Sequence record: MW250785
From: Escherichia phage UPEC03
Reading direction: 5' to 3' (one strand)
DNA: 64,000 nucleotides
Both the position numbers and the translations under genes were made by a program. Each line of letters starts with the position of its first letter. Position 1 is the stretch's first letter. Positions 5,045-64,000 of this stretch are shown one piece after another. The notes under the pieces were generated by a model, which was given only the letters and a program-made list of their open reading frames with translations, made no database searches and was not told where the DNA came from.

Positions 5045-5223
5045 TTTCGCCCCTCATAGATGACGTAGAAAAAACCTATAACCCATAGCAATGATAATAC
5101 TATCAAAGCGGCTTTTCTGTCAACACCGTTAACGTGGAAAACGCACCATCCGAAGAGATACGTTATCACCGCGCAAACGATATAAGACAAAGCAAATACG
5201 GCATGTAGCGCGGTGAGTTCCAT
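5041..5223 (-). CDS. hypothetical small membrane protein (two TM segments)
   Basis: 60 aa, hydrophobic. Confidence 0.4.
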   Translation of the reverse strand: MELTALHAVFALSYIVCAVITYLFGWCVFHVNGVDRKAALIVLSLLWVIGFFYVIYEGRK

Positions 5224-5756: not shown

Positions 5757-6250
5757 TTATTTGTCTCTTCATTATGAAAATTGCCGAAAATCTCTTTTGC
5801 GGCATCATTGTAAGCGGCTTGTGCTTCTTCAACAGTTGCAAAAGAACCCAAATGTTTTCGTTTGCCCTTATATTGAATACTTGCAGAAAATCGGTTTCCG
5901 CGAGGGTATACACCAATGGAACCGCTTGTGTTGTTTTTACGTTTGTTAATGTGATTTGCATTGTTTTCCGCTGTACTTGCTGGACGCAAGTTATCAGGAA
6001 AGTCACCAACATCAACGCCTTTGATATGGTCAATCATATCAGGGAGATACCCAAAACGCGAGTAAAATATAACACGATGACGCATATATTTCACACCTTT
6101 TGTTTCGATGCGGGTATATCCCTTTTTGGTTTTTGTCCCAGCTTCCATACCATTTTTAAGCCAGTAAACCTTTCCGGTATTGTAATCTATTCTAACCTTA
6201 GTCAGAAGATCCTTTATACCATCTATTTCTTTTTCGGACTTCGATCCCAT
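5753..6250 (-). CDS. HNH homing endonuclease with AP2 DNA-binding domain (paralogue A)
   Basis: HNH core RHRVIFYSRFGYLPDMIDHIKGVDVGDFPDNLR plus AP2-like SGSIGVY...YKGKRKHLGSFATVEEAQAAY; termini overlap genes 61 and 56. Confidence 0.8.
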   Translation of the reverse strand: MGSKSEKEIDGIKDLLTKVRIDYNTGKVYWLKNGMEAGTKTKKGYTRIETKGVKYMRHRVIFYSRFGYLPDMIDHIKGVDVGDFPDNLRPASTAENNANHINKRKNNTSGSIGVYPRGNRFSASIQYKGKRKHLGSFATVEEAQAAYNDAAKEIFGNFHNEETNK

Positions 6251-7974: not shown

Positions 7975-8760
7975 TTACTCTATTGTGAAAGTGAAAAGGT
8001 TTTGCGCGGGTTCTGGCTCCGGTTCGGGGAATTCCATACAGACAACTTCACACATCGGTTTCACGCCTTTCCATTCTTCCAGATAATATCCGGTATCAAT
8101 GCCGCAACCTGGTTGCATTTCAAGGCCAGTTTCATCAAGAAACTTTTTGCATTTCGATGTTGTCGTTGATTCGTCCTGTTGGAAATAACGCCGTCCAGAG
8201 TAACGAAAATTCGCGGACATCTGCGGGAGAATGAACGTACCCGCACGGGCAATCTGTGAAGCACGTTCAATCACTTTATATTCAAATTCCGCGCCCGTAT
8301 ACTTACCCTTAAAATTGGATGTCTTTATCTTGCCGAAAGGTGGATTGCTGATCGCCATATCAAACAGAGTATCAAACTCCGTCGTTAACGCGTCTGCGTT
8401 AATCCAGGTCGCTTCCGGTACGATACGCTTACCCAACTTATAGTATGTATGGTTTAACTCAACACAGACGATTTCACGCGGTTTGGCGTACATCATCATA
8501 TGAAGCATCGCGAAGGATAGTCCACCGATACCCGCGCACAGGTCAACAACGCTTCCACTGGTACAAGCATCAATCGTGAAATCGCGAGCAAGTCCGATCG
8601 GGGTAAAGAATGCACCCAGTTCAGAGTTATTCGTAAATGCACCTTCATGGAAGTTTTCGATAATGAATAATTTTTCGTCGTAGGTTAGCGCCTTGTCAGA
8701 CTCCACCAGATCCATTATCTTGTTGTGTTGTTTGGTTTCCGCTTTCGTTAACTTCGCCAT
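7975..8760 (-). CDS. putative N6-adenine DNA methyltransferase (amino-MTase, gamma-type motif order)
   Basis: Motif X FFTP, motif I VVDLCAGIGGLS, motif IV NPPFGK in that order. Confidence 0.65.
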   Translation of the reverse strand: MAKLTKAETKQHNKIMDLVESDKALTYDEKLFIIENFHEGAFTNNSELGAFFTPIGLARDFTIDACTSGSVVDLCAGIGGLSFAMLHMMMYAKPREIVCVELNHTYYKLGKRIVPEATWINADALTTEFDTLFDMAISNPPFGKIKTSNFKGKYTGAEFEYKVIERASQIARAGTFILPQMSANFRYSGRRYFQQDESTTTSKCKKFLDETGLEMQPGCGIDTGYYLEEWKGVKPMCEVVCMEFPEPEPEPAQNLFTFTIE

Positions 8761-11785: not shown

Positions 11786-12934
11786 TTACTCTTCTGACAT
11801 ATCCACATCATCAGGGATATCGTCATCGAGATCAAATTTATTTGACGGTTCTACTTCATCGTCAGAATAAAGATCTTCGAGTGCTGCCCCGTCAGTGATC
11901 TCTTTGTCAGGAATACGGTACTTATCCTGAATAGCATCAAGGAATGGTTGGTGAGTGAACAGAGGTTTCCAGAACTCAATAGAGTTGGTTTCCGATTCAC
12001 GCCATTTCTTTTCTTCCAGTTCAAGTTCGCCCGTTTCCGTGTTCAGGAACGCACGACCGCGCCAGCCTTTCGTTGGAGTCTGAACGAAGTTCATTTCCAT
12101 AGCCAGATCCAGAAGACCAGAGAACATACTGATACCGCCCTCATAGGTAACATGAAGCGGGAATTTGGATTTCTCTTTCACGAAACGAGATTTCTCGATG
12201 TTCATGATGAAGTCATAACCGACAACTTCCGTACCTTCTTTCACCTGCTGTTTGCCCAGGATGATCGCGGTATCTGCGGAATACATCAGACCAGTACCAC
12301 CAGAAATGACTTTCTTGCTGTACATTTCTTGTGTGTCGTATGTGTGACAGATACACACCATTGGAATATCCAGATCCGCCAGGTAAGGCGTAACCATACG
12401 GAACATACCTTTAAGTGCTTTAGCGCGGGTCATGTCCTGTTTGTCGTTGTCAGACAGGGCATCAGCCAGTTCTTTTTTACTCGCGGTGTTGCCTACAGAG
12501 TCCACGAAAATGATCACTTTGTCGCCACGTTCCAGCGCGTTAAGCTGGCTCACAACGTCATTTCGAAGTTGCTCAACTGTCGTGATACGAGTATACACCA
12601 CACGATCGGGGTCAACGCCCATTGATTTCAGGTAAGACTTAGTTACGCCTTTCTCTGAATCGTAGAACAGACACACAGCATCCTCATTCGCTTTGAGGTA
12701 CGCCGCAACCGTCACCAGCCCCAGATTCGATTTAAAGTGTTTTGACGGACCAGCAAACAGAGTTAAGCCGGAAGTCAGACCACCATCGAAAGCGCCGGAC
12801 AGCGCCAGGTTCAGGATCGGTACACGGGTTCGAGTTTTGGTGATGTTATTGAAAACATCGCTTTCAGACAGAATTGACGCAGATTGACTATTCGAGTTTT
12901 TGATCAGTTTTTTCAGGAGTGCTTTATTAGACAT
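11786..12934 (-). CDS. uvsX: UvsX recombinase (RecA-like)
   Basis: 382 aa; RecA-fold motifs; close similarity to T4 UvsX. Confidence 0.9.
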   Translation of the reverse strand: MSNKALLKKLIKNSNSQSASILSESDVFNNITKTRTRVPILNLALSGAFDGGLTSGLTLFAGPSKHFKSNLGLVTVAAYLKANEDAVCLFYDSEKGVTKSYLKSMGVDPDRVVYTRITTVEQLRNDVVSQLNALERGDKVIIFVDSVGNTASKKELADALSDNDKQDMTRAKALKGMFRMVTPYLADLDIPMVCICHTYDTQEMYSKKVISGGTGLMYSADTAIILGKQQVKEGTEVVGYDFIMNIEKSRFVKEKSKFPLHVTYEGGISMFSGLLDLAMEMNFVQTPTKGWRGRAFLNTETGELELEEKKWRESETNSIEFWKPLFTHQPFLDAIQDKYRIPDKEITDGAALEDLYSDDEVEPSNKFDLDDDIPDDVDMSEE

Positions 12935-12987
12935 TTATTTTTCCGGTTTATATACACGCATAATATTTTCCTCACAAATTTATATAA

Positions 12988-13006
12988 ATGGGGCATTTCT
13001 GCCCCG
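12988..13006 (-). terminator. GC hairpin GGGGCA-TTTC-TGCCCC after gene 43, U-rich 3' side on minus strand
   Basis: Seen in sequence. Confidence 0.55.
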
Positions 13007-13013
13007 TCAGGTC

Positions 13014-15719
13014 TTACCAGTCATCACCAAACAGAGTGTTCAGGGATGTGCGTTTTTCGTAATCAATTTTACATGCTTCCGTGATGTTTTGCAACGGACT
13101 AATCACATGTTTTTCAAATAATCCGCCGTAGTCTACCCACTTCAAAATATCTTCTTCGATCTCAGTTGGTAAACGCGTACCGGATTGCCATGCGATGCAA
13201 TCAGCTTGCCACGGGTTTTTATCTCGCAACGGCAGAACCATCACCTTTTCACCTTCCATGATCGGGGTGATTCCTTGAATACCCTTCGTATGGCGGTTAA
13301 AGAACAGAACGCCTTTGATGTGGTTTGGTGTCCCTTTGATTGGGAAGCCAGCACCATCATTATATTTTGAGATATTATTAGCAGATGATACACCAGCTAT
13401 TTCTCGGTAGTCAAGTGCCTTATACTCTTCTTCAAATACTTTGAAGTGTTCGTGTAAGGATTCTTCACCTTCTTGCAGGATGCGACGGATCGCTTCTTTC
13501 AAGAACTTTTTAACCGCTGTCGGTGTACTGCTTCGCTGGGTTTCCATTCCCATGATCTTTAATTTAGGCTTCTCGTAACGGGTTCCTTCGGAGTCCCATA
13601 CGTTAGCCGCATATCGTTTCTTCGCCGTCCAGAAACTACCCAAACCTTTCGATCCCAGAGGTGGCCCAGAAATGATTTCGCGATCCATAAACATCAGGTG
13701 TTCGACGTTGTTCATGTACTCGCAAAGTTCACGGTAGCCCTTATCAATGATAGGTTCCATGCGTTCTTTACTGAACTTATCCAGGAAGTCAACCCAATGG
13801 TTGTTATCCCTGAACTTACTTTCACCGCCGACTTTCGCGATCACGTTGTCCATGCAAACATAAATGGAGTCGGTGTCACAGTAACGCACGTATGCGTAAT
13901 CCGTGGTGTTGCACAGTTCGTTAAGGTATTCGTTAACCTTACGCTCAATCCACTGAATAGCCAACTGCCCGAACATGGTGATCGCGCTGGCGTTTCGAAT
14001 ATCGAAGTAACGGAAATGTTCGTTACCCAACGCACCATAAAGGGAGTTGATACTGATTTTACGGTTAAGCTGTGCGGTGTTCGCCTGTGCGATTTTCTTC
14101 TCACACACTTTCTTCACGGCTTTAAGCATTTGCTTAGACAGCGTTTTCAGTACAGCTTTTGATTCATCACCGAAATCTTCGTAGAACTCGAAATCAGGGT
14201 TGATCATTTGGTTGTGCGCGTCTGTCAGGTGTTCGAGTTCGTGCTTAATCAGTTCGAGATTTCGCTCACCCGCCATCATTCGTTTTTTCCACGCCTTACG
14301 CTGATCAAATACTTTCTTGATCTCGACCGGAATCACGCCTTTAACATCGCGTCGGAACATCCACCCGTTAGGAGAGCAGCTAAATTCGTCGCTAGGACGC
14401 GGCGCAGTCTTATTGATGTATTCATGCATCGGACGCACTGCAAAGCTGTTAGCGATTGTCTCAGGGCTTATATTCACCTGTCGGATGATAGATGGATACA
14501 GACTGGTTAAGTCGAACGATACAATGTAACGGTATGGAGCGACAACCGGATCTTTAACGTATGCACCATCATACGGCGTTTTAGTATGGCGTTTGTTTTC
14601 TGGGATTACTTTCTTCTCTTCACGTAGAGAGTTGTAAATGATTGCGTCCCACGTTTTAAGCGGCGACATAACCCCAGGGAAGTTGATTTTCGCGTAGTAC
14701 GCTACAGACAGAACCAGTTCGATAAAGTTTCGTTTACCGTCGATATCCAACACGCGGATAACGTCAACGATGTTGTACGTGATGTATTTCTGGTGATCCG
14801 CTTGACGAAGTTCAGACAGCGAACCTTCATAATCAACTTTGCTTTTACCTGTTTCGAACTCAGCGATCGCACCCAGAGAGTAAGACGGTTGCGGGGTGAA
14901 ACTGAATTTCTTATAGAGATCCATTCCATCCATTTGAGCAACGCCGTAAATCTCATAGCCCAGTTGTTCGTTCCCGTAATGGTCGGTTGTTGTCTTCGCA
15001 GTCACTTTCCCGAACGGGCTGAAATGACGAACAACGTTTTGCCCGAAGATGTTCAGGTAACGGGTGATGATATACGCAATATCGAACTTGTTTGAGTTCC
15101 AGCCCGTAACAATAACAGGCGTCCGCTCTTTCCAGTCTTTGATATAAGCCGACAACAGCGACTTTTCGGTCTGGAATGAACGGTAAACAATTTTCTTCAA
15201 GTCTTCTTCGCTGATCTCGTTTTCGGTATCAACTTTCGACGCTACCCATTCATCTAACCCGCCCTCGACCAGATCGTACACAAAGAATTTATCTTCAACG
15301 CTGTCATAGTGTGTGATTGCGTCGATAGCATATTTTGCTTCGCGGGGATCAGGGAATTCAGGCGCGGTAACTTCGATATCAAGTGAAGCAATGCGGATCT
15401 TGTCGCGGTCGTATTCGATTTCCTTTCTGTAGGCATCGGATATATACGCCAGCCTGAAATCATCCATGCCTAGCGCTTCCATGCCTACATCTTTCATTCG
15501 CTGCATCCAGTTTTTTGCTTCTTTGATGCTTTCGAAGTTCTTTTTGATGCAGGTCTTGCCGTAAATGTCGCGATATGGCGAGTCTACACCCGCCATAGCG
15601 TGTTGAAACATTGTAGGCGCATATTTTGTTTTGCGAACCTGTTCGCGTCCCTCAGAGTCAATGAAGCGCTCGTAGATGTGATCGCCCATTTGCTCAACGG
15701 ATAGATAAAATTCATTCAT
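13014..15719 (-). CDS. 43: DNA polymerase (family B), gp43
   Basis: 901 aa; N-terminus MNEFYLSVEQMGDHIYERFID...TKYAPTMFQH parallels T4 gp43; exo and pol motifs (YCDTDS). Confidence 0.95.
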   Translation of the reverse strand: MNEFYLSVEQMGDHIYERFIDSEGREQVRKTKYAPTMFQHAMAGVDSPYRDIYGKTCIKKNFESIKEAKNWMQRMKDVGMEALGMDDFRLAYISDAYRKEIEYDRDKIRIASLDIEVTAPEFPDPREAKYAIDAITHYDSVEDKFFVYDLVEGGLDEWVASKVDTENEISEEDLKKIVYRSFQTEKSLLSAYIKDWKERTPVIVTGWNSNKFDIAYIITRYLNIFGQNVVRHFSPFGKVTAKTTTDHYGNEQLGYEIYGVAQMDGMDLYKKFSFTPQPSYSLGAIAEFETGKSKVDYEGSLSELRQADHQKYITYNIVDVIRVLDIDGKRNFIELVLSVAYYAKINFPGVMSPLKTWDAIIYNSLREEKKVIPENKRHTKTPYDGAYVKDPVVAPYRYIVSFDLTSLYPSIIRQVNISPETIANSFAVRPMHEYINKTAPRPSDEFSCSPNGWMFRRDVKGVIPVEIKKVFDQRKAWKKRMMAGERNLELIKHELEHLTDAHNQMINPDFEFYEDFGDESKAVLKTLSKQMLKAVKKVCEKKIAQANTAQLNRKISINSLYGALGNEHFRYFDIRNASAITMFGQLAIQWIERKVNEYLNELCNTTDYAYVRYCDTDSIYVCMDNVIAKVGGESKFRDNNHWVDFLDKFSKERMEPIIDKGYRELCEYMNNVEHLMFMDREIISGPPLGSKGLGSFWTAKKRYAANVWDSEGTRYEKPKLKIMGMETQRSSTPTAVKKFLKEAIRRILQEGEESLHEHFKVFEEEYKALDYREIAGVSSANNISKYNDGAGFPIKGTPNHIKGVLFFNRHTKGIQGITPIMEGEKVMVLPLRDKNPWQADCIAWQSGTRLPTEIEEDILKWVDYGGLFEKHVISPLQNITEACKIDYEKRTSLNTLFGDDW

Positions 15720-27144: not shown

Positions 27145-27841
27145 ACTTGCAGTTGTCAAAATGCCATCGTTTCATATTGGTGGCATCACCAACTTTAGCG
27201 CAATGGGGGCAAGTTAATTGCTCCCTTTTCTTTTGTATTTTTCTGTCTGGGTTCTGGGTACAATATGGAATATGGCTGTTCAAGTAATGCACTGTCGATT
27301 CTGTACCACAATGAGGACAAGAACCGCGATCTGATACTACGTTGCTGTTTTTATGTGCTCGCATGACTCCTGCAAATGCATTCACTTTCCCTTCATTGCC
27401 TGGCTTGTGCTTGCAGTTGTCGAAGTGCCAGCGGTTCATATTACCTACTAAGCCGGACGTATTGCAATGAGGACACGTAACCCTGTTCTGTTGAAGTTTG
27501 GCCTGTCTCATGCGTAAGCGTGTCTCTTCGCTGAACTCTTTTTGTTTCTGGGCTTCAAGTGCTTTTTCTTTTAACCATCCATAGCGGCGGTTTGCTGTAC
27601 GCGCAGACGATCGAGAAGTGCCGACTGTAAGCATGTTAGCAGCATAAATTAGTTTATGGTTGCCTGGATACATCTTAACCAATAGCAGATGTGCTATGAA
27701 ATGTTGACGTGCTGACAGTTCAACCAGATTTTCGGGATCGTCCGATCCTCCCATACATTTTGGAACGATGTGATGTTTCTCTTTGTACTTTGCATCCGTT
27801 CCGGTAGTCATGAGTTGTTCGTAAATCTTATGATAATTCAT
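27131..27841 (-). CDS. HNH endonuclease with repeated CxxC zinc-finger modules
   Basis: HHIVPKCMGGSDDPENLVELSARQHFIAH HNH core; three CPHC...W(H)FDNCK repeats; 3' end overlaps 3' end of gene 46 convergently. Confidence 0.75.
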   Translation of the reverse strand: MNYHKIYEQLMTTGTDAKYKEKHHIVPKCMGGSDDPENLVELSARQHFIAHLLLVKMYPGNHKLIYAANMLTVGTSRSSARTANRRYGWLKEKALEAQKQKEFSEETRLRMRQAKLQQNRVTCPHCNTSGLVGNMNRWHFDNCKHKPGNEGKVNAFAGVMRAHKNSNVVSDRGSCPHCGTESTVHYLNSHIPYCTQNPDRKIQKKREQLTCPHCAKVGDATNMKRWHFDNCKFKTS

Positions 27842-27889
27842 GATGATGAACCCTGTTTGATAGTCCGTTAGATACCCCTATTTAGGAAC

Positions 27890-28087
27890 ATGATTATGTT
27901 AGAACGTGAATTTGATTTAAAGACCTCTCCCGAAGTGGAGAGGTTTTATCTCCATAATGAACTATTGGAAGAAAAACATGTAGTTACAATGGCAGATGTT
28001 GAGGAAGCATTCAAAGATAACCCCATTGAATTGACACGCATCAAGAATAATAAATCTTCGGTGTGGTTCCTCGAAAAAATCTATTGA
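27890..28087 (+). CDS. hypothetical small protein
   Basis: ORF. Confidence 0.3.
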   Translation: MIMLEREFDLKTSPEVERFYLHNELLEEKHVVTMADVEEAFKDNPIELTRIKNNKSSVWFLEKIY

Positions 28088-28112
28088 CAGCAAAACATAA
28101 ATACCTTAAAGT
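28084..28112 (+). promoter_or_regulatory. candidate sigma70-type promoter TTGACA-17-TAAAGT upstream of J-domain gene
   Basis: Perfect -35, weak -10; followed by GAGG SD and ATG 28159. Confidence 0.4.
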
Positions 28113-28158
28113 TGCCCGTGTACTGAGTTACATGGGCTTTTATTTTGAGGAACGGAAA

Positions 28159-29859
28159 ATGATTAACGAACAAATGTCACACAGCGAAGCATTGAAGATT
28201 TTGGGCGCTACTGGCGACGAATCTAAAGCTGAACTGTCAAAGCTCTTTAAACGTGCTTCTCTGCGCAATCACCCCGACCGTGGTGGTAGCACTGAACTCA
28301 TGCAGAAAATCAACCAGGCGTATGACGTTGTAACCAAAACAAACAGCGCTGGTAAAACTTACAGTGATGTTCGCGCAGAACACGCAGCAAACAAAAAAGC
28401 ATGGGAAGAAAAATTTGCAGCGTATTTCGTGGTTGCGAAAAACTATTTCAGCACGAAATTCAACGCGCAAGAGTTCGCGGAATACTTCACGAAATTCACC
28501 GGACAACCAACAACCTATACTCAGTCAATCAGCGAAGTTCGCGGTCATACTGTTCACGCGACATATCGTTTCACCTCTGGTGATGCGTTCTTTGACTTCT
28601 CTTTCTCTTGTCAACCGCCGAACGGTCAAGGTTTAGCAGCGCCGGACGCGTCCGCACTGGGTAGCGTATCGGTTAATACTCTGGTTCTGGTTGGTACGAA
28701 GAAACACAAAATGGCAAGCCGTGATTACCAATGGGGCAAGAACCCAGACAAAATCACGCCGGAAAGCCTGTTCCCTGCTAAGAAACTGGAATCCATCTTT
28801 AGCCCGACTAAGAAGGATCTCAAGTTCAAACGCGCAGACTACATGACATCCTTTGCCCGTATCTTGGGTGCGAAGGTTAGCGGTAACGATGTTATTGTTG
28901 ATGTTGGACACTATAAAGTTCACTTCTACCGTCACGTATTCATGCGTAAAGGCGCGTATGTGTTCCAGTATGTTGTTGACCCAACTGTGAACAAATTCAA
29001 ACCTGCTGAACGTCTGAAAGGTACTATGCTGGAAGATGAAGACGGTGCATGTCTGGATATGATCATCGACACTTTCAAAGAAATGCAGAAAGTGAAACCA
29101 GACGCAAGCGGCATCGCAGCGGTAATCGACCGGATGAACGCAGAGTTTGCAGCGGGGCATCGTTCAGCATCTTTTGTTAAACGTACCGCACAGCAAGCAG
29201 CAGCACCAGCGCCGGAAGAGAAACCAAAACGCACCGTTAACCGCATCAATAAAGATGACTATTTCAACGCACTGAAACAAGCAGGGGCAACATTCCGCAG
29301 TAACTACGGTGAGTTTGATAACGGCGCGGGTTTGACTTTCCACTTCAAACGCGAGATCAGCAACCGCAAAGGTTTCTGGAGTTTCAGCAGCTTTGATTTC
29401 ATGCACTCCGGTCAGAAACATGTGGAATGGTTGAAAGATATCGACATTGATGAGGATAGCAAAGGCGCAAGTATCGGTTTGCTGGTTGATACCCTGAAAC
29501 AACTTCGTGGTGTTGCTGACTGGTACACAGCCCGTAAGATCCTTGAAGGTATGCGTGATAACTTCAAGGCTGGTAAATTCTCCGCACCTCATGTGAAGAA
29601 AGAAGCCGAACAGAAACGCACTGAAACGCAAGCTAAGGACGAGTTAGGCGCACAGCCTACGAAACCACAGGCAGCGAATAAAGAATCCCCAGCGGTTGAT
29701 AAGGCGCATCAGGCACAGATGGATCGTGAGAAGTCACAGATGAATGCAACCATTCGTTCTATGCTCTCTGCCCTGGTTAAAGCCGGACGCAAAGACACGC
29801 CGGAAGAAATTAAAAAAGCAGTCGATGAAGCAATCGCTCTTTGGCGCTTGAAACACTAA
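28159..29859 (+). CDS. J-domain (DnaJ-like) protein, Rki-like
   Basis: N-terminal J domain ALKILGATGDESKAELSKLFKRASLRNHPDRGG...INQAYDVV with HPD motif; ~490-aa C-terminal region without recognisable domain. Confidence 0.8.
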   Translation: MINEQMSHSEALKILGATGDESKAELSKLFKRASLRNHPDRGGSTELMQKINQAYDVVTKTNSAGKTYSDVRAEHAANKKAWEEKFAAYFVVAKNYFSTKFNAQEFAEYFTKFTGQPTTYTQSISEVRGHTVHATYRFTSGDAFFDFSFSCQPPNGQGLAAPDASALGSVSVNTLVLVGTKKHKMASRDYQWGKNPDKITPESLFPAKKLESIFSPTKKDLKFKRADYMTSFARILGAKVSGNDVIVDVGHYKVHFYRHVFMRKGAYVFQYVVDPTVNKFKPAERLKGTMLEDEDGACLDMIIDTFKEMQKVKPDASGIAAVIDRMNAEFAAGHRSASFVKRTAQQAAAPAPEEKPKRTVNRINKDDYFNALKQAGATFRSNYGEFDNGAGLTFHFKREISNRKGFWSFSSFDFMHSGQKHVEWLKDIDIDEDSKGASIGLLVDTLKQLRGVADWYTARKILEGMRDNFKAGKFSAPHVKKEAEQKRTETQAKDELGAQPTKPQAANKESPAVDKAHQAQMDREKSQMNATIRSMLSALVKAGRKDTPEEIKKAVDEAIALWRLKH

Positions 29860-30144: not shown

Positions 30145-30398
30145 AACTACCAAAACACACAACCCTGTTAACCCGCGAAAAACTCCATTCTGTTGAATGG
30201 AGTCCGTTAGATGTGATGGTTTTCGATCTGGAATCCAAAATCATTAACGAGCATGTTAACGGATTGAGTATCTTTTCTGTTGAATTTGGAAAGATTCGCG
30301 GGTATAATGAATCCTGTAAAGACAAATTGCGTGTCATGGTTGAAGCTATGGGCTACATCGTGACTATTGAAGACAACAAAATGTGGATCGCGCTATGA
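30141..30398 (+). CDS. hypothetical protein
   Basis: ATGA start/stop overlap with upstream gene. Confidence 0.4.
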   Translation: MKLPKHTTLLTREKLHSVEWSPLDVMVFDLESKIINEHVNGLSIFSVEFGKIRGYNESCKDKLRVMVEAMGYIVTIEDNKMWIAL

Positions 30399-30976
30399 GC
30401 AAAGTAAAAGCAGTTTTCGCCGTTGGTCATGATATGTACGAAGTGGACTATGCTTTCGGTTATGAACAGGGTTTGCCGTGGGGCCACTGCAAAGAGGATT
30501 TGCAGAACTTCAAAGCAGAAACCGCAAATAGCGTCCTGATCATGGGTGCGAACACTTTTACTTCTCTGCCTGGTAAATTGCCAGGGCGAGTTCATTGCGT
30601 TCTGTCTGCGTCCGGTCAACGTCTGGTAACGAAGAACGGGAATACCGCTGATTACATCATCCACGGCGGCGGGTTGTCTGCTGCAATCGACGTGATGAAA
30701 GCAACGCATCCAGATAGTGATGTGTGTATCATTGGCGGTAAGGGGTTGCTTCTGGAAGCAATCAATAATAAACTGGTTGATGAAGTGGTTGTGACCCACA
30801 TTTACGGACATCATGCATATAATGCACCCGCGTTTAAACGTGATGTTTCGTTCACTGTTCCTGAATTCTGCGAAGCGGTTCTGAAATATGAACTGACCGA
30901 TTTCAAAATTCAACAGATCGAATCAAACGAACGCGTCAGAAAAATTATCGTCGATCGACATACGAAAAAGGCATAA
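30395..30976 (+). CDS. frd: dihydrofolate reductase
   Basis: 193 aa; GLPWG..KEDLQNFKAET...IMGANTF.SLP matches T4 Frd. Confidence 0.85.
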   Translation: MSKVKAVFAVGHDMYEVDYAFGYEQGLPWGHCKEDLQNFKAETANSVLIMGANTFTSLPGKLPGRVHCVLSASGQRLVTKNGNTADYIIHGGGLSAAIDVMKATHPDSDVCIIGGKGLLLEAINNKLVDEVVVTHIYGHHAYNAPAFKRDVSFTVPEFCEAVLKYELTDFKIQQIESNERVRKIIVDRHTKKA

Positions 30977-30977
30977 A

Positions 30978-31832
30978 ATGAAACAATATCTTGATATCGT
31001 CAACACCGTTCTAACACACGGTACTGAATCAACCGATCGTACTGGTGTTGGTACACTGCGCATCTTCGGGATGCAAGCACGTTGGAACCTCGCAGAAGGT
31101 TTCCCAGCTACTACCAGCAAACAGCTATTCTTCAAACCGTGTAAGCATGAATTACAATGGTTCCTCGAAGGTTCTACCAACGTGGAAACACTGCGTAAAA
31201 TGACGTGGGGTGAAGATAGCGATAAGCGGACGATCTGGGACGATAACTACGAAAATCAGGCTAAAGCGCTGGGTTATACGCATGGTTATCTGGGGCCGAT
31301 CTACGGGCATCAATGGCGCTCGTTTGGTGAGGAAGGTTCTTTTTATGGTGTTGACCAGATTGCAAAAATCATCGAACAACTGAAAACCACACCAGACGAT
31401 CGCGGGATCATCGTTTCCGCATGGAACCCTGTTGATCTGGATGATATGGCTCTGCGTCCGTGTCACTGTTTCTTCCAGTTCGTCGTAATCAACGGTAAAC
31501 TGTCTCTACAGTGGTATCAGCGTTCAGTTGATGTCTTCTTAGGGTTGCCGTTCAATATCGCCTCCTACGCTCTCCTGACGCATATTATCGCTGATATTTG
31601 CGGGTATGAAGTGGGCGATCTGGTTTGGACTGGCGGTGATGTCCATATCTACAAAAACGCAGTAGAACAAGCGAAAGAGTTGTTGAAGCCGGAACGCGCA
31701 CCGCTTCCACTTCCGACCCTCGTAATGCCGAAGGTAAATAGCTTACTTGATTTGGATCAAGAATTCTTTGACTCCATCCATTTGAAAGACTATAATCACC
31801 ACGGCTCGCTAAAAGCAGCTATGGCAGTATAA
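30978..31832 (+). CDS. td: thymidylate synthase
   Basis: DRTGVGT...AWNP...PCHCFFQF...QRSVDVFLGLPFNIASYALLTH; no intron. Confidence 0.9.
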   Translation: MKQYLDIVNTVLTHGTESTDRTGVGTLRIFGMQARWNLAEGFPATTSKQLFFKPCKHELQWFLEGSTNVETLRKMTWGEDSDKRTIWDDNYENQAKALGYTHGYLGPIYGHQWRSFGEEGSFYGVDQIAKIIEQLKTTPDDRGIIVSAWNPVDLDDMALRPCHCFFQFVVINGKLSLQWYQRSVDVFLGLPFNIASYALLTHIIADICGYEVGDLVWTGGDVHIYKNAVEQAKELLKPERAPLPLPTLVMPKVNSLLDLDQEFFDSIHLKDYNHHGSLKAAMAV

Positions 31833-35333: not shown

Positions 35334-35616
35334 TTGTCGCGTCGTAAACAAGTATAAAGGTAGCTGGGATGTCGATATTCAGAGAGGTACGAAATTCGGC
35401 AATCCCTTCTACAAGGGAACACGGGCTGAAAACATAATGAACTTCATCCCGTATTTCCAAAACTTGATTCGAACTGGCGTGATCACAATCGACGAACTGA
35501 AAGCATTGGACGGGAAGCGGTTAGGATGTACATGCAAACCTCTACCGTGCCACGGTGATTATATTGCTCACTGCGTCAATGTGTTGACCGGAAAGGTGAA
35601 TAAGTTGGATATATAA
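35305..35616 (+). CDS. small protein with GNPF ... CxC...PCHGD motif (DUF4326-like)
   Basis: Motif-level resemblance only; start chosen at internal ATG. Confidence 0.4.
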   Translation: MQNGDKNTLDCRVVNKYKGSWDVDIQRGTKFGNPFYKGTRAENIMNFIPYFQNLIRTGVITIDELKALDGKRLGCTCKPLPCHGDYIAHCVNVLTGKVNKLDI

Positions 35617-36014
35617 TGGACGATGTAACATTTGGTGTAATATTTCCTTTGCGTCTGGGTTCAGACAAGAGGATAGACCGGAGTTTCGTTAAATGTGGCG
35701 AATTCCGGCATTGTGTGTATTTTATTGAAATTGACGGTCGGATAGTGTATGTTGGAAAATGTCGTGATTTGTGGAAGCGGTTAGACACATACCGCAATTC
35801 GAAATACTGGCGGGAAGCAAACCCCAGTAATATTCTGAAAACCGCACGTCTGGAAATGGCAATCAAAAAACGTAAGCGTGTAAATCTTATCGTGACAACA
35901 CACGATGAAGACACATATCATGATTTTGAAATAAACATGATCCGAAAAATCAATCCTGAATGGAACAAACAGCACTATGACAAAGCTAACCAAAAATCAG
36001 AAAACCCTCTTTGA
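35616..36014 (+). CDS. GIY-YIG nuclease-domain protein (short, homing-endonuclease-like)
   Basis: VYFIEIDGRIVYVGKCRDLWKRLDTY resembles GIY-x10-YIG motif with conserved R and downstream E/N; lacks long DNA-binding tail. Confidence 0.5.
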   Translation: MDDVTFGVIFPLRLGSDKRIDRSFVKCGEFRHCVYFIEIDGRIVYVGKCRDLWKRLDTYRNSKYWREANPSNILKTARLEMAIKKRKRVNLIVTTHDEDTYHDFEINMIRKINPEWNKQHYDKANQKSENPL

Positions 36015-39140: not shown

Positions 39141-39391
39141 GTGACAAAATCAGAAAGATCCATCAAGCATGGTTCTGTACTGAACCAACGATGCTTCGGT
39201 ATGGTTGTGTGTTTGGGTTGGTTGATAATGATCCGCAACAGGACATTGCAACAAGTCCGGTTGTTGAATACGCGATTCCGGCGAACAAATCGTTTGTTGA
39301 AGTAGTGACACGTTCAGGTACTACGTATCACATCGTTAACCCTGATAACGATTTCATCAAAGACATTCTGAAATATATGGATGACCGTTAA
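39122..39391 (+). CDS. hypothetical protein
   Basis: ORF. Confidence 0.4.
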   Translation: MGGSIMSDKIRKIHQAWFCTEPTMLRYGCVFGLVDNDPQQDIATSPVVEYAIPANKSFVEVVTRSGTTYHIVNPDNDFIKDILKYMDDR

Positions 39392-39921
39392 TGAAATTCA
39401 AAGTAATGAATATGCTGAGAGCAATCGATCGGAGTCAACGTTCTCAATGTATTTCGAATCGTGTAGGTGCTATTATCGCGATGGGTGGTCGTGCCGTCGC
39501 GTGGGGAGAAAATAATACGGTTGACCTTGATTGTCGTTGCAACTCATGCAACAATCATATGGTGAATGATGACGGTAAACTGAAAGCGGTTGATCGTCCT
39601 GAACATTCAGCGTGGTCAAACGATAACGAAATTCATGCAGAAATGAAAGCGCTATTGAGTGCGCACACAAGAGGTGTTATACTCAAAGATGCAGCACTTT
39701 ACACAACTGCATCGCCTTGCCCTAACTGCGCGAAACATATCGAATGGTATGTTGCTAGCGGGGCGATTACATCGGTGTATTATCTCGATAAATACGATCG
39801 TGGTAATGATGAATGGATTTCACGCTTGCAGAAATATGGCTGTGTCGTGGAACAAATTAAACGGGAAGAGTTAGAATCGTTTATCGACTTTTCCAAAGTA
39901 GTGTTTAACAACAATGAGTAA
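39391..39921 (+). CDS. cd: dCMP deaminase
   Basis: HAEM...PCPNC zinc-binding deaminase motifs. Confidence 0.85.
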   Translation: MKFKVMNMLRAIDRSQRSQCISNRVGAIIAMGGRAVAWGENNTVDLDCRCNSCNNHMVNDDGKLKAVDRPEHSAWSNDNEIHAEMKALLSAHTRGVILKDAALYTTASPCPNCAKHIEWYVASGAITSVYYLDKYDRGNDEWISRLQKYGCVVEQIKREELESFIDFSKVVFNNNE

Positions 39922-60599: not shown

Positions 60600-61111
60600 C
60601 AGTGATGACTCTTTGATGTGTGTTCAAGGTTACGGAAGATGTTTCCATGTTCCAGTTGAGTTCCGATCGGGCCGCATTCATCGGAGTACGTGAATTCATA
60701 GATAAACACGCCGTCCTGATTGCCATACTTCGTGTTGTACTCTTCATACAACCACATTTTGATCAGAGCGTCTTTCTCTTCTGTGTCCAGATCGTACCAG
60801 TCTCGCCCGTCATACGCAAGCGCAATTTGAGGGTTTGAACGGTAGCGGGTTTCTGCGCTTTCTTCGGTTTCCCAGTCATAGCGTTTATCGTCGTAGAACG
60901 ATTCAAAGCTATTACCCAGATGACCGCCTAAGTCACGGTGAACATGATTGACCACTTCTTCCGCTGTTAACGGAGGATTGTAGTAACCGCAGTTCGGAAC
61001 GCAATCACCCATCATTTCGCGCAGGTTGTCGATATTAGTCGGATCTTTCGGGAACCGGACGATGAAACTACTTGATGAACTGTTGCTCACAAAACCAGAA
61101 CGGATTTTCAT
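60599..61111 (-). CDS. hypothetical protein, paralogue 2 with N-terminal MKIRSGFVSNSSSSSFI motif
   Basis: See 56691..57164. Confidence 0.5.
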   Translation of the reverse strand: MKIRSGFVSNSSSSSFIVRFPKDPTNIDNLREMMGDCVPNCGYYNPPLTAEEVVNHVHRDLGGHLGNSFESFYDDKRYDWETEESAETRYRSNPQIALAYDGRDWYDLDTEEKDALIKMWLYEEYNTKYGNQDGVFIYEFTYSDECGPIGTQLEHGNIFRNLEHTSKSHH

Positions 61112-61341
61112 TTTACATCCTCAAATTGTAAGTTTTCTTTGGTTGCGTTCGCAATGGCTTTTTCGTTGCTCAGTGTTACTATGCGCAGACGTTCTCCAGT
61201 AAAGCCGTCGCATTCAGTGATACTTACCCAGTCAAAAGGTTTAGCCATTTCAATCGCACGTTCCAGCGATACGGTAGAACCGACCAAATCACTAAATGTA
61301 TAGTAATCTTCGCTTAAACTTTCAACAGTATAAATTTTCAC
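61108..61341 (-). CDS. hypothetical small protein (MKIYTVESL...)
   Basis: ORF, 4-nt overlaps. Confidence 0.4.
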   Translation of the reverse strand: MKIYTVESLSEDYYTFSDLVGSTVSLERAIEMAKPFDWVSITECDGFTGERLRIVTLSNEKAIANATKENLQFEDVK

Positions 61342-61580
61342 GATACTTTACCTTTTGTTTCAGATTTCAGGACGATGTTACTGTAAGGATCTTTTGCTAC
61401 CAGTTCCCACAGGTCGCCAGGATGTTCCCCGCTACGGTAGACGGATGAACGGATGATTTCGTTAAACTTGCTCAGGGCTTCGTCTATGTCGTCATACCCG
61501 CATTTGAGAGGCTTACGGTTGCAACGAATGAAGAACATTTCGTTGGTATTCTCCCAGCGTTCGGCGTTTTTAACCTTCAT
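61338..61580 (-). CDS. hypothetical small protein
   Basis: ORF. Confidence 0.4.
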   Translation of the reverse strand: MKVKNAERWENTNEMFFIRCNRKPLKCGYDDIDEALSKFNEIIRSSVYRSGEHPGDLWELVAKDPYSNIVLKSETKGKVS

Positions 61581-61849
61581 ACCGCCTCCATTTTACCAAT
61601 GACTTCTTCGTATGTCACAGGGTTAGGTTCATAGCCGTTAGCGCCTATTGTATCGCCTACTCTGTTTCCTACTAAAGAAGCAACCGCAACTTTCTTGCCG
61701 TCTTTCCACGCAGTGAAATGCAGATTATCCGCAACATACGGGAAGGTTTCGTGATTGTTCACCGCGTCGATGCAGTCCATAACGGTATCAGACGCGCAGA
61801 TCAGATTACCAGGTTCATAATCAACCAAACATTCAACAGTGTAAATCAT
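61577..61849 (-). CDS. hypothetical small protein (MIYTVECL...)
   Basis: ORF. Confidence 0.4.
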   Translation of the reverse strand: MIYTVECLVDYEPGNLICASDTVMDCIDAVNNHETFPYVADNLHFTAWKDGKKVAVASLVGNRVGDTIGANGYEPNPVTYEEVIGKMEAV

Positions 61850-61865
61850 AATAATTTCCTCACGA

Positions 61866-61888
61866 AAAAGCCCCTTTCGGGGCTTGAT
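61866..61888 (-). terminator. GC hairpin AAAGCCCC-TTTC-GGGGCTT
   Basis: Seen in sequence. Confidence 0.5.
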
Positions 61889-61891
61889 TAA

Positions 61892-62170
61892 TCAGTGTCC
61901 GAACACACCACGAATAGACTCTGCGAACGCGTACAGTTCAGGGTTTTTCGCTTTCACTGTTTCGATTTGTTCCAGGATGTAATCTGGTTTGTATTTCGCA
62001 CCGAACCAGCAGTAAGAGAAAGAACGATCCCACATGAACACGTTGTAGTATTCACCGTTACGCACTTCAACCATCACGTAACCTGGATTAGAACCCAGCG
62101 GGTAATCTTTCAGTAGATTAAATTTCGCACCAGCGCCAGTACATCCGTTAAACAGGTCATTAAAAGTCAT
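61892..62170 (-). CDS. hypothetical small protein
   Basis: ATG after conserved leader copy. Confidence 0.4.
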   Translation of the reverse strand: MTFNDLFNGCTGAGAKFNLLKDYPLGSNPGYVMVEVRNGEYYNVFMWDRSFSYCWFGAKYKPDYILEQIETVKAKNPELYAFAESIRGVFGH

Positions 62171-62250
62171 GGTATGTTCCTTTTCAGTTTCGTTTCGGTA
62201 AAGCTAATGTATCACTATCCTGGTCAGTATGCAATGTTTAATTTTGCAAA
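62171..62250 (-). promoter_or_regulatory. cassette copy: -35 TTGCAT, 17-nt spacer, -10 TACATT, leader ...CCGAAACGAAACTGAAAAGGAAC
   Basis: Read on minus strand. Confidence 0.45.
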
Positions 62251-62760
62251 TTTACCAAAATGTTTTATCGCTTCCCGATCGTATGCTTTTGCAGCCTCGT
62301 ATTCGTCACGATAGGAACCGATATGTTTAACCTTGCCGTCAATCTTTATCTGTGCAATGTAACGTATTCCAGTAGGTTGATCACGTACACATACACCCTT
62401 GAATCGACTGGTTGCTACTCTTCGTTTAGTCCGGTTCTGACAGTTTCGGGATTGATCCGCTTCACGCAAGTTATCAATCCCGTCGCCAGCCTCAACACCA
62501 TTTTTATGATCAATCACATCAGGCAGTTTTCCGGTTGCAACGTAGTAGATGATTCGATGACGTAGATATCCTTTGCTTTTGAAATAAACGCGGGTATATC
62601 CTCCTTTAATCTTCGAACCTACTTCCTTTCCGATCAAGTCAGAACGTTTGTGTGACGTTCGTATAATTGTCCCCGTTTGTATATCAACAGAAACAGTTTT
62701 AAGGAATTCGTCAATTCCTTTCTGTTCTTCTTCGATTGTTCTTAGTCCGTTGTGTGACAT
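62224..62760 (-). CDS. HNH homing endonuclease with AP2 domain (paralogue D)
   Basis: RHRIIYYVATGKLPDVIDHKNGVEAGDGIDNLR + AP2-like SRFKGVCV...HIGSYRDEYEAAKAY; overlaps 3' end of C5-MTase gene. Confidence 0.8.
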   Translation of the reverse strand: MSHNGLRTIEEEQKGIDEFLKTVSVDIQTGTIIRTSHKRSDLIGKEVGSKIKGGYTRVYFKSKGYLRHRIIYYVATGKLPDVIDHKNGVEAGDGIDNLREADQSRNCQNRTKRRVATSRFKGVCVRDQPTGIRYIAQIKIDGKVKHIGSYRDEYEAAKAYDREAIKHFGKFAKLNIAY

Positions 62761-63665
62761 AACACCTTCTTGATTTGTTTTGCTATAGCCTCGATTACTG
62801 GTATTGAAACAGAATTACCTGCTTGTTTATACGCTTGCATCTTGCTTTTGTTGATAATAAACGAATCTGGGAAACCCTGCAAACGAAAACACTCACGGGG
62901 AGTAAGTCTTCGGGGGTTCTTTCCTTCCTGCAATACCAGACATTGAACACCATCTTTATAGTAATTTGCAGTGATAGTCCCAGTGTGCGTAGAATCGCTT
63001 GTGACGGCCTGATAACCGAAACCCTTACCGTTTGCCTTATTTCGTTCCTTACGCTCTCTAAAGCCCTTCCATGCGTTATCTGACAGGGTGAACGAATCAT
63101 CAGCATCTTCGAGGATGTCGCCTACGCGTGTAGGGGTACGCGGGGGAACCGGAAACGAAAAGAATACATCATCCAGGAAGCAGACAATAAACACGCGTTC
63201 CCGTCTTTGGGGTAGTCCGAAATCCTTTGTGTTCAGGCGTTGATAGAATACGTTATATCCTTCGGCCTCCAGAAGCCCGTAAATCGTTTTAAACGTCTTC
63301 CCCTTGTCATGGGTTAGCAGTTCAGGCACGTTCTCAAAGAACAACACACGGGGCTTTTTAGCGCGTATAATGCGGAGGATTTCGAAGAACACCGTACCGC
63401 GTACATCATCAAAGCCCAGTTTCAATCCGGCTTTACTGAACGCCTGACACGGGAACCCCGCGAGCAGGATATCATGATCAGGTACTTTGTTTTCATCAAT
63501 GGCGAATAGATCACCCTGTAGGTTATCATCGCCCCAGTTTTCGATATATGTTTGCTGTGCGAACTTGTCGATTTCAGACGTTAAAAGGCATTCGACACCG
63601 CCGAACGCCTTATCAAATCCTAATCGAACCCCGCCCACACCAGCGCAGAGGTCAATTATTTTCAT
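62742..63665 (-). CDS. DNA (cytosine-5)-methyltransferase (Dcm-like)
   Basis: Motif I DLCAGVGG, motif IV GFPCQAFS, motif VI ENV, motif VIII QRRERVFIV, motif X GNSV. Confidence 0.8.
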   Translation of the reverse strand: MKIIDLCAGVGGVRLGFDKAFGGVECLLTSEIDKFAQQTYIENWGDDNLQGDLFAIDENKVPDHDILLAGFPCQAFSKAGLKLGFDDVRGTVFFEILRIIRAKKPRVLFFENVPELLTHDKGKTFKTIYGLLEAEGYNVFYQRLNTKDFGLPQRRERVFIVCFLDDVFFSFPVPPRTPTRVGDILEDADDSFTLSDNAWKGFRERKERNKANGKGFGYQAVTSDSTHTGTITANYYKDGVQCLVLQEGKNPRRLTPRECFRLQGFPDSFIINKSKMQAYKQAGNSVSIPVIEAIAKQIKKVLCHTTD

Positions 63666-63931
63666 ACGTCAAAATCAATCTCGTCGATTTTGTATGAGTT
63701 TTCGTCAATGTCCGCCCATAGGGTTACATTAACGTGTTTGCTATCTTCGTACAACTGGCGACCATCAATCCCGCCCGTGTAATTGCTTTCGGTACGTTCA
63801 GTAACTTCCAGTCGGAGGCTATCGCGCATGATCTGAACAACAGCCTGTTCCAGTGTAACTGCGTCTGGGTTTTTGGTATCGCCCAGTACAACATCTTTAA
63901 CGTTCAAAATAATATCAGTCATTAGTGCCAC
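63662..63931 (-). CDS. hypothetical acidic protein
   Basis: ORF with 4-nt overlap. Confidence 0.4.
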   Translation of the reverse strand: MALMTDIILNVKDVVLGDTKNPDAVTLEQAVVQIMRDSLRLEVTERTESNYTGGIDGRQLYEDSKHVNVTLWADIDENSYKIDEIDFDV

Positions 63932-64000
63932 TCCGTTTTAATACCATGTCGGTATGCGTCAATCCCCAGCGGGGTAATCAGCAACCATGCTTTCGAATTA

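Follow-up and report, generated by a model that had tools for sequence, protein, structure and literature searches.

How a phage can encode both a homologue of gp56, the dCTPase used by T-even phages to keep unmodified dCTP out of their DNA, and a C5-cytosine DNA methyltransferase is the question raised by this locus of Escherichia phage UPEC03 (record MW250785), which also carries a methyltransferase of the N6-adenine type. A sequence-only reading had offered two answers: either cytosine is not replaced by hmC in this phage, or the C5 enzyme has another substrate or role. The DNA analyzed here, called the window throughout, is a stretch of 64 kb from a genome of ~178 kb. The remainder was represented by Enterobacter phage EC-F1, whose genome is complete (178,070 bp) and 98.5-98.8% identical to the window; Pseudotevenvirus-type records (e.g., EC-F1 and Citrobacter phage Citrof4) are 98-99% identical to it. 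Our overall reading, held with a probability of about 0.85, is that the DNA contains cytosine, that site loss and orphan methyltransferases counter restriction, and that the gp56 homologue does not serve to exclude dCTP.

The C5-cytosine methyltransferase gene

62742-63665, minus strand: C5-cytosine DNA methyltransferase, read as an orphan; 307 amino acids, methylase domain of the SsoII/Ecl18kI family without an N-terminal HTH

The product of this gene matches Pfam PF00145 end to end, with residues 1-300 aligned to profile positions 1-324 (E 3.3e-92; 309.8 bits, cut-off 22), and scores 317.8 bits against TIGR00675 (cut-off 100.65). Its catalytic motifs are complete, namely motif IV PCQ with the Cys nucleophile, motif VI ENV, motif VIII QxRxR (here QxRER), motif IX RE and motif X GNSV, which are found in the strings GFPCQAFS, FFENVP, QRRERVF, LTPRECFRLQGFP and QAGNSVSIPV. 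They are retained in 21-22 of the 22 clusters of the phage clade. In motif I the GxGG is kept, but Phe is replaced by Cys (DLCAGVGG) in 22/22 phage-clade clusters, whereas 96 of 97 other homologues have Phe. Also fixed in the phage clade at otherwise invariant positions are the replacements of ENVK by ENVP and, in motif X, of QFGNSV by QAGNSV.

The Slopekvirus gene KP27_137, like the KP15 gene labelled 'Dcm', is an orthologue with 85% amino-acid identity and the same neighbourhood, and the comparison with KP27_137 gave a dN/dS of 0.086. Compared with KP27_137, the gene in the window is overlapped at its 3' end by an HNH homing-endonuclease gene, which alters the last five residues. The other neighbours are small hypothetical genes, and the G+C content of the gene is 46.4% (window, 44.6%). 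The full-length domain match, the kept motifs and the purifying selection suggest that the enzyme is functional.

The gene had been described as a complete Dcm-type C5-MTase. Its completeness is borne out by the profile matches and motifs, while the label Dcm-type applies only generically: the protein scores 191.8 bits against the Dcm subfamily model NF007772, far under the cut-off of 710 bits, and the Vsr partner is missing, since no Vsr was found by tblastn in EC-F1 or the window. A nuclease resembling R.Ecl18kI gave no tblastn match in EC-F1 and no significant one in the window (best E 0.70). The HTH region is missing as well. M.Ecl18kI has 379 amino acids with an N-terminal HTH region of 71 residues (HTH_3 at residues 9-63), while the phage enzyme starts at motif I; in the SsoII/Ecl18kI family this region autoregulates the restriction-modification operon (PMC3978073). 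As it has no regulatory domain, partner nuclease or Vsr, we read the C5 enzyme as an orphan anti-restriction methylase.

Predicted target sequence

The C5 enzyme is 54% identical across the methylase domain to the M.SsoII/M.Ecl18kI/M.Kpn2kI group (M.Ecl18kI and M.Kpn2kI are encoded by plasmids pECL18 and pKPN2), and the catalytic parts are of the same size. These methylases reside on small enterobacterial plasmids, and their host range overlaps that of the phage (Klebsiella, Enterobacter, E. coli, Shigella). Unlike them, the phage enzyme has no partner nuclease, and motifs I, VI, VIII and X have changed in its clade. The nuclease Ecl18kI cleaves CCNGG (PMC2577355). Identity is likewise 54% to M.SpyI of the Streptococcus pyogenes mef(A) element, over residues 2-302 and including the target-recognition domain; its product is C(m5C)NGG according to PMC6597129. 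The plasmid methylases likewise yield C(m5C)NGG. M.SpyI is also located on a phage-like element, but has its own N-terminal extension of 100 residues and lies beside McrB/LlaJI-type restriction subunits (PMC4260502). A Morganella homologue with 61% identity adjoins a truncated Ecl18kI-like nuclease gene. Three other bacterial homologues sit after a gene of the GmrSD family, a context that is uninformative on the target sequence.

The target-recognition domain is 48% (M.SsoII/M.Ecl18kI/M.Kpn2kI) and 41% identical to CCNGG enzymes with small gaps only, compared with 21% for E. coli Dcm and 18% for M.HhaI. M.HhaI (GCGC), the top sequence match in the PDB, was discarded as a predictor of specificity, since the likeness lies in the catalytic core. 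E. coli Dcm and the EcoRII methylase (CCWGG) belong to the same class as the phage enzyme. In the target-recognition domain, the C5 enzyme, Dcm and the CCNGG enzymes have the motifs GxGFGY and YYKDG in common, and a phage enzyme that methylates the inner C would confer EcoRII resistance just as Dcm does (PMC3620542). However, identity to Dcm is 36% overall, and the phage enzyme has neither the Dcm insertions nor the Dcm N-terminal extension. By this kinship, the predicted target is most likely the inner C of CCNGG or of its CCWGG subset.

Restriction-site avoidance

Depletion in the phage genome exceeds 4-fold for 20 of 96 palindromic sites, and 15 six-base palindromes, including the HindIII, PstI, BamHI, KpnI and SacII sites, are absent; among 73 testable sites in bases 1-50,000 of T4, none is depleted to that level. 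Such heavy purging of type II sites fits DNA with ordinary cytosine. GATC, with an observed/expected ratio of 0.96, is not depleted, and the genome has a Dam orthologue. There are ~325 CCNGG sites in the 178 kb; the ratio is 0.71 for CCWGG (311 sites) and 0.11 for CCSGG (14 sites, 130 expected), and as a basis for deciding between CCNGG and CCWGG as the target these statistics are ambiguous.

A depletion that is strong for CCSGG and lacking for CCWGG is easier to explain if CCWGG alone is protected. The C5 enzyme might accordingly be equivalent to Dcm in function, with CCWGG as its only target, and unprotected CCSGG sites would have been purged by a genome that deletes such sites elsewhere. 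The sharing of GxGFGY and YYKDG with Dcm is in line with this proposal, as is the finding that the DNA of KP15 and KP27, phages whose methyltransferase orthologue is 85% identical, resists EcoRII despite ~280 sites (PMC3620542). Host Dcm could also explain that resistance, and the same paper credits the host enzyme in a siphovirus without a methylase (PMC3620542). Against CCWGG-only methylation stand the target-recognition domain, which is much nearer to the CCNGG enzymes than to Dcm, the missing Dcm insertions, the low score against the Dcm subfamily model and the missing Vsr. Other forces may moreover have depleted CCSGG, for instance enzymes specific for CCSGG or a McrA-type system that restricts C(m5C)GG. 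We regard restriction of the target to CCWGG as less likely than not, with an appreciable chance of being correct.

Other possible roles of the C5 enzyme

It is far less probable that the C5 protein is non-canonical, i.e., that it transfers a group other than methyl, takes part in the 'unknown modification' of KP27 or acts on a substrate other than sites in double-stranded DNA. Such a role could be indicated by residues peculiar to the clade that lie within or beside the motifs for AdoMet binding and catalysis (Cys for Phe in motif I, Pro for Lys after ENV, Ala for Phe in motif X), and the resistance of KP27 DNA to EcoRI, NsiI, SnaBI and DpnI is unexplained (PMC3620542, PMC5219037). However, every catalytic residue is kept together with a target-recognition domain of the SsoII type, and KP15 has the same gene, yet KP15 DNA is degraded by DpnI while KP27 DNA resists it (PMC3620542, PMC5219037). 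The gene thus does not track the KP27 phenotype. Taken together, the fixed motif replacements, the purge of CCSGG but not of CCWGG and the KP27 resistances allow a small probability that the enzyme differs in specificity or in its use of the cofactor. It would then be no plain methylase and could contribute to a further kind of DNA modification in Pseudotevenvirus and Slopekvirus phages, which we consider improbable. No methylome or LC-MS study of Pseudotevenvirus or Slopekvirus was found in the literature.

The window also encodes a homologue of the T4 endonuclease DenA:

35616-36014, plus strand: DenA (endonuclease II)-like gene; 29% identical to T4 DenA (E 9e-8), phrog_1111 'endonuclease'

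The presence of this gene despite the lack of hmC gives some substance to an idea raised as speculation in PMC8056088, namely that the methyltransferase chiefly shields the cytosine DNA of the phage from its own DenA homologue and that host restriction is secondary. Site-specific methylation of only ~325 CCNGG sites cannot cover the whole genome, nothing ties the sites of endonuclease II to CCNGG, and the closest kin of the C5 enzyme are methylases of restriction-modification systems; we consider this role very unlikely.

The second methyltransferase

7975-8760, minus strand: NPPF amino-methyltransferase with N6-adenine-type fold; 261 amino acids

Description of this product as an N6-adenine-type MTase was correct: motif I is followed by motif IV (N/D)PP(Y/F), here NPPF, on a Rossmann fold. 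RNA and DNA enzymes score alike among the fold matches, and a separate target-recognition domain is not visible. Related genes are located in early regions of phages and prophages next to ERF, VRR-NUC and Lar, a context that favours DNA, so the substrate is probably DNA. Like T4 Dam, a D12-class adenine methylase acting on GATC, the protein is a phage orphan amino-methyltransferase from the region of replication genes, but it is not the orthologue of T4 Dam: BLASTP gave no alignment between the two, and PF02086 is not matched. The true Dam orthologue is encoded beyond the window; its gene occupies 28049-28900 of EC-F1, and the product matches PF02086 and is 54% identical to T4 Dam.

The gp56 homologue and the dTMP pathway

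5223-5756, minus strand: gp56 homologue, NTP pyrophosphohydrolase of the dCTPase/dUTPase type; 177 amino acids, 46% identical to T4 gp56

30383-30976, plus strand: frd, dihydrofolate reductase; 41% identical to T4 Frd

30978-31832, plus strand: td, thymidylate synthase; TIGR03284 308 bits, match to T4 Td (1TIS)

39391-39921, plus strand: cd, dCMP deaminase; phrog_174 (E 1.5e-44), 31% identical to T4 Cd

The likeness of this protein to gp56 was confirmed by its identity to T4 gp56, which extends over the full length (E 4e-54), and by a match to phrog_173, 'NTP pyrophosphohydrolase', in PHROGs. PHROGs and the direct comparison with T4 gp56 were the only means of identification, as Pfam and NCBIfam gave no match and a PDB sequence search gave nothing useful. 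The homologue shares the acidic helix motifs DExRE and ELxD with T4 gp56, and its gene has the T4 map position, with dda on one side and the primase gene on the other. To our knowledge, gp56 has neither a solved structure nor mutational mapping by which sequence differences between hmC and non-hmC phages could be interpreted.

In T4, gp56 is one of a set of proteins, together with gp42, gp1 and the glucosyltransferases, that keep dC out of DNA. As shown below, the search of EC-F1 and the window found none of gp42, alpha-gt, beta-gt, alc and denB, and total exclusion of dCTP therefore cannot be the task of the homologue. Gene 56 has homologues in nearly all T4 relatives, those that make hmC and those that do not (PMC2993671, Table 4), and an earlier paper has noted that the RB43 group combines gene 56 with a C5 methylase (PMC8056088). 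Given this near-universal distribution, the paradox that the earlier reading implied, of a C5-MTase beside gp56, is not a real one. The homologue most likely acts as a dUTPase/dCTPase alongside Cd, Td, Frd and dNMP kinase.

The td gene is the only member of the thymidylate-synthase family found in the window or the full EC-F1 genome. A td homologue modifying dCMP in the manner of XP12 or of hmC synthesis was considered and rejected: the score against TIGR03284 is 308 bits, the best match among solved structures is T4 Td (1TIS, E 1.3e-89), and the Asn of 'PFNIASY', a marker of dUMP specificity, is retained. The gene is a true thymidylate synthase and not a dCMP hydroxymethylase.

Cytosine or hmC in the phage DNA

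11786-12934, minus strand: uvsX recombinase; 55% identical to T4 UvsX

12935-13013, no strand: intergenic gap between uvsX and gene 43; 79 bp

13014-15719, minus strand: gene 43 DNA polymerase; 54% identical to T4 gp43 over 906 amino acids

At the position at which T4 has segA, beta-gt, 42, imm and imm.1, the earlier reading had seen no genes at all, and the 79-bp gap between uvsX and gene 43 indeed holds only a terminator-like hairpin (13005-12990) and AT-rich sequence. The search for gene 42 and the glucosyltransferases in the remaining genome was run on EC-F1. With T4 proteins as queries, tblastn on its complete genome recovered every positive control (gp56, Dam, gp43, UvsX, Cd, Frd and DenA) and none of gp42, alpha-gt, beta-gt, alc, denB and arn. 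In EC-F1 and the window together, the sole match to gp42 (dCMP hydroxymethylase) was td, with 22% identity, neither glucosyltransferase gave a match better than E 0.6, and alc, denB and arn gave none at E ≤ 1. The absence of the last three genes agrees with the entry for Pseudotevenvirus in PMC12115623 (Table 4), which lists dCTPase as present and hmC, denB and alc as absent.

The literature on this phage group agrees with cytosine that is not hmC (PMC2993671, PMC12115623, PMC3620542, PMC8056088). Phages of the RB43, RB16 and KP15 types have a gene 56 homologue with Dam and C5 methylase genes, and no gene 42 or glucosyltransferases (PMC2993671, PMC3620542, PMC5219037, PMC8056088, PMC12115623); the set in KP15/KP27 and the RB43 group is the same as here, with the gp56 homologue and Dam but no 42, alpha-gt or beta-gt (PMC3620542, PMC5219037, PMC8056088). 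In KP15 and KP27 no hmC genes were found, and DpnI cuts KP15 DNA while EcoRV cuts KP27 DNA (PMC3620542). Together with the lack of hmC genes in EC-F1, the genuine td and the purged type II sites, these reports strongly support ordinary cytosine in the DNA of this Pseudotevenvirus-type T4 relative, the first of the two answers outlined above. That hmC or another base replaces cytosine through genes outside the window, with an inactive or redundant methyltransferase, is almost certainly wrong: it could appeal to a view of just 64 kb of ~178 kb and to the presence of both gp56 and DenA homologues, but it is contradicted by the complete EC-F1 genome, by massive site avoidance that a hypermodified genome would not need, by the cleavage of KP15 and KP27 DNA and by the strong purifying selection on the methyltransferase.

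A proposed anti-restriction strategy of this T4 relative

According to the model that we propose, two classical anti-restriction strategies would replace the hmC and glucosyl-hmC of T-even phages, namely wholesale loss of sites and methylation by several orphan methyltransferases. With S-adenosylmethionine, the C5 enzyme would methylate the inner cytosine of CCNGG or CCWGG, modifying <1% of cytosines (~650 of ~79,000 if both strands of all 325 CCNGG sites were methylated), and this may protect progeny DNA from CCNGG/CCWGG restriction enzymes encoded by small plasmids and chromosomes of the Klebsiella, Enterobacter, Citrobacter and Cronobacter hosts. The 7975-8760 product would be a separate orphan methyltransferase of the N6-adenine type, probably acting on DNA. 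The gp56 homologue may keep dUTP out of DNA and channel deoxycytidine nucleotides to dTMP synthesis, with Cd linking the gp56-derived dCMP to dUMP and dTMP synthesis.

The combination of genes is real, yet it is already on record for this phage group; the finding is an ordinary one and, with the gene set published, carries little weight as a discovery. The modest addition made here is the target prediction and the view of the C5 enzyme as a stripped-down relative of the CCNGG methylases (SsoII/Ecl18kI/Kpn2kI) that plasmids in the hosts of this phage carry. A gp56 homologue is an unsafe marker for hmC DNA. Therapy-relevant phages of Klebsiella, Enterobacter and Cronobacter appear to rely on site loss and at least four orphan methyltransferases, two of them outside the window, which bears on their host range and on the choice of restriction enzymes for typing their DNA.

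Relatives and genes of interest

Megablast searches with window positions 61000-64000 and 1-24000 returned approximately 40 to 60 complete phage genomes at 95-99% identity, including Enterobacter phage EC-F1, Citrobacter phage Citrof4, Klebsiella phage iPHaGe-KPN-11i, and Cronobacter phages GAP161 and leE. These relatives are ∼177-181 kb each and are placed by NCBI in the Straboviridae (Pseudotevenvirus); the Klebsiella Slopekvirus group (KP15, KP27) forms a larger set at 80-90% identity. The G+C content is ∼44-46% throughout. T4 proteins were used as tblastn queries against the window and the complete EC-F1 genome (178,070 bp, joined from five pieces; 98.5-98.8% identity to the window). The three genes named in the sequence-only reading are all present:

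62742-63665, minus strand: C5 methylase, 307 aa, complete; full-length match to Pfam PF00145 (E 3.3e-92), TIGR00675
7975-8760, minus strand: second methyltransferase (NPPF enzyme), 261 aa; AdoMet motif I and NPPF motif
5223-5756, minus strand: gp56 homologue, 177 aa; 46% full-length identity to T4 gp56 (E 4e-54)

Gene content and site avoidance indicate ordinary cytosine

One alternative of the sequence-only reading was that cytosine is not replaced by hydroxymethylcytosine (hmC) in this phage, and a scan for gene 42 and glucosyltransferase genes bears this out. The tblastn searches of EC-F1 and the window gave matches for T4 gp56, Dam, gp43, UvsX, Cd, Frd, and DenA but not for gp42, alpha-gt, beta-gt, alc, denB, or arn. 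The sole gp42 match (22% identity, E 1e-4) is td (30978-31832), which passes the thymidylate-synthase equivalog model TIGR03284, has T4 Td (1TIS) as its nearest solved structure (E 1.3e-89), and retains the Asn of ‘PFNIASY’. In thymidylate synthases, this Asn selects dUMP and not dCMP. Therefore, td is excluded as a dCMP hydroxymethylase or methylase, leaving no dCMP-acting enzyme of either type among the matches.

The interval between uvsX (11786-12934, minus strand) and gene 43 (13014-15719, minus strand) is indeed free of genes. Where T4 has segA, beta-gt, 42, imm, and imm.1, the 79 bp here (12935-13013) contain a GC-rich terminator-like hairpin and its T-run (13005-12990, minus strand). 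The stretch directly after the hairpin, TATATAAAT, resembles a T4-type late promoter.

Ordinary cytosine DNA also fits the pattern of site loss. Of the 96 palindromes of 4-6 bp for which 15 or more copies are expected in EC-F1, 20 were depleted more than 4-fold; none of the 73 testable sites in bases 1-50,000 of T4 was equally depleted. Fifteen hexamers (16-78 copies expected) are wholly missing from EC-F1, namely AAGCTT, CTGCAG, GGATCC, GGTACC, CCGCGG, TCCGGA, CAGCTG, GCATGC, AGTACT, CACGTG, ACCGGT, CGTACG, GACGTC, GCGCGC, and GGCGCC, which include the HindIII, PstI, BamHI, KpnI, SacII, PvuII, SphI, and ScaI sites. GGWCC occurs at 0.06 of expectation and GGSCC at near 0.9. Site loss of this extent marks a genome open to attack by ordinary type II enzymes.

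The literature agrees with this assignment. The Pseudotevenvirus entry lists a dCTPase as present and hmC, denB, and alc as absent (PMC12115623, Table 4). No hmC genes were found in KP15 or KP27, DpnI degrades KP15 DNA almost completely, and EcoRV cuts KP27 DNA (PMC3620542). A DenA (endonuclease II) homologue adjoining nrdB (35616-36014, plus strand) is kept despite the ordinary cytosine; how a phage with such a homologue spares its own DNA is a question also posed in PMC8056088.

The C5 enzyme as a predicted CC(N/W)GG-group methylase

The PCQ, ENV, QRRER, RE, and GNSV catalytic motifs are intact in the C5 enzyme and are retained in 21-22 of the 22 protein clusters of its phage clade. The KP27 orthologue, KP27_137, shares 85% amino-acid identity, and the dN/dS of 0.086 at a dS of ∼1.4 indicates a gene that is old in the clade and subject to strong purifying selection, with a G+C content (46.4%) in line with the genome. 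The 22 phage clusters carry DLCAG for DLFAG (motif I), ENVP for ENVK (motif VI), QRRER for QNRER, and QAGNSV for QFGNSV (motif X), at positions that are invariant or nearly so in ∼97 bacterial homologues, M.Ecl18kI, M.SpyI, Dcm, and M.HhaI.

The 379-aa methylases of the Ecl18kI/Kpn2kI/SsoII systems, encoded on pECL18 (Enterobacter cloacae), pKPN2 (Klebsiella pneumoniae), and 4.2-kb Shigella and E. coli plasmids, are 54% identical to the C5 enzyme over residues 2-302; M.SpyI (408 aa, S. pyogenes mef(A) element) is likewise 54% identical. When these sequences were aligned together, the target-recognition domain (residues 162-251) shared 48% identity with that of M.Ecl18kI and 41% with that of M.SpyI, with small gaps only, but just 21% with that of E. 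coli Dcm and 18% with that of M.HhaI. The latter, although the top match among solved structures, was rejected as a guide to specificity since the likeness is limited to the catalytic core. M.SsoII and M.Ecl18kI have an HTH regulatory region (PMC3978073), whereas the phage protein starts at motif I and has none. No gene for an Ecl18kI-like nuclease or for Vsr was found by tblastn in EC-F1 or the window. Judged by its sequence, the C5 enzyme is an orphan that falls into the CC(N/W)GG methylase group.

A 61%-identical methylase in a Morganella morganii P2-like prophage is preceded by a 156-aa ORF for a truncated nuclease that is 45% identical to R.Ecl18kI, matching only over residues 123-228; the pair looks like a decayed or truncated CCNGG-type restriction-modification system. 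In bacterial and metagenomic contigs, homologues with 58-60% identity lie directly downstream of a GmrSD-family (DUF262/DUF1524) gene. This gene pair is conserved, with an extra RRXRR/HNH gene at one locus, and may be an uncharacterised methylase-nuclease module.

An HNH_3/AP2-type homing-endonuclease gene (62224-62760, minus strand) overlaps the last 19 bases of the C5 gene and looks like a free-standing insertion. It occurs in some relatives only; in genomes that lack it, the alignment spans 82% of the 3-kb query, and their methylase aligns to residue 302 only and ends differently (...KKVLCHTTD in the window vs ...KKALA in KP27). A second HNH/AP2 gene (5753-6250, minus strand), 42% identical to the first, occupies the slot where T4 has dam and overlaps its neighbours on either side, the gp56 homologue and the primase gene. 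It is found in Citrof4 but not in EC-F1, where the flanking genes are 7 bases apart.

Predicted target of the C5 methylase

Ecl18kI cleaves at CCNGG (PMC2577355), and the statement in PMC6597129 that cites Euler 2007 gives C(m5C)NGG as the M.SpyI product. Homology favours CCNGG over CCWGG, and we predict CCNGG as the target with a probability of roughly 60%. A target restricted to CCWGG is a less probable, though still plausible, alternative suggested by site counts in EC-F1: CCWGG is nearly kept (311 sites vs 436 expected, 0.71), while CCSGG is depleted approximately 10-fold (14 vs 130, 0.11), the pattern expected were CCWGG alone protected. This depletion sits uneasily with the CCNGG specificity predicted from homology. 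However, the loss of CCSGG has other possible causes, as it could be purged by CCSGG-specific restriction enzymes, or McrA-type restriction could target the C(m5C)GG that would arise from methylation at CCNGG.

KP15 and KP27 DNA resist EcoRII despite 276-279 sites (PMC3620542), which is compatible with either target and could also be caused by host Dcm. KP27 DNA is also reported to resist EcoRI, NsiI, SnaBI, and DpnI despite many sites; KP15 has the same methylase genes, yet its DNA is degraded by DpnI (PMC3620542, PMC5219037). A nucleotidyltransferase gene, KP27_140, is located three genes upstream of the C5 methylase, just past the window's end.

Further methyltransferases

The NPPF enzyme shows no similarity to T4 Dam. 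A confident structure model (pLDDT 89.5) supports its description as N6-adenine-type, with fold matches that do not separate DNA from RNA as the substrate. The family is found at >50% identity across many phages and prophages. Since such homologues in Pseudomonas and Salinisphaera lambdoid prophages lie in early regions beside ERF recombinase, VRR-NUC, and Lar-like restriction-alleviation genes, a DNA anti-restriction role is favoured. Beyond the window, EC-F1 encodes two more orphan methyltransferases side by side (27213-28900), a D12-class Dam orthologue (PF02086; 54% identity with the T4 enzyme) and a PF01555 N4/N6 (beta-class) methylase. Counting the pair in the window, the phage type encodes at least four methyltransferases.

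The gp56 homologue does not imply hmC

As in T4, the gp56 gene is placed between dda and the primase gene. Homologues are present in 1,396 phage records, so gene 56 is not diagnostic of hmC. Alongside Cd (39391-39921), Td, Frd, and a dNMP kinase, the simplest role of the protein would be twofold: that of a dUTPase, as the EC-F1 annotation contains no second dUTPase gene, and that of converting dCTP and dCDP to dCMP to feed dTMP synthesis.

RB43-group phages have been noted explicitly to carry a C5 methylase alongside homologues of dCTPase and DenA (PMC8056088); the gene set is already known from the group to which this phage belongs. Gene 42 is restricted to certain lineages, while gene 56 is found in nearly all T4 relatives (PMC2993671, Table 4), and the apparent paradox of a dCTPase alongside a C5 methylase therefore dissolves.
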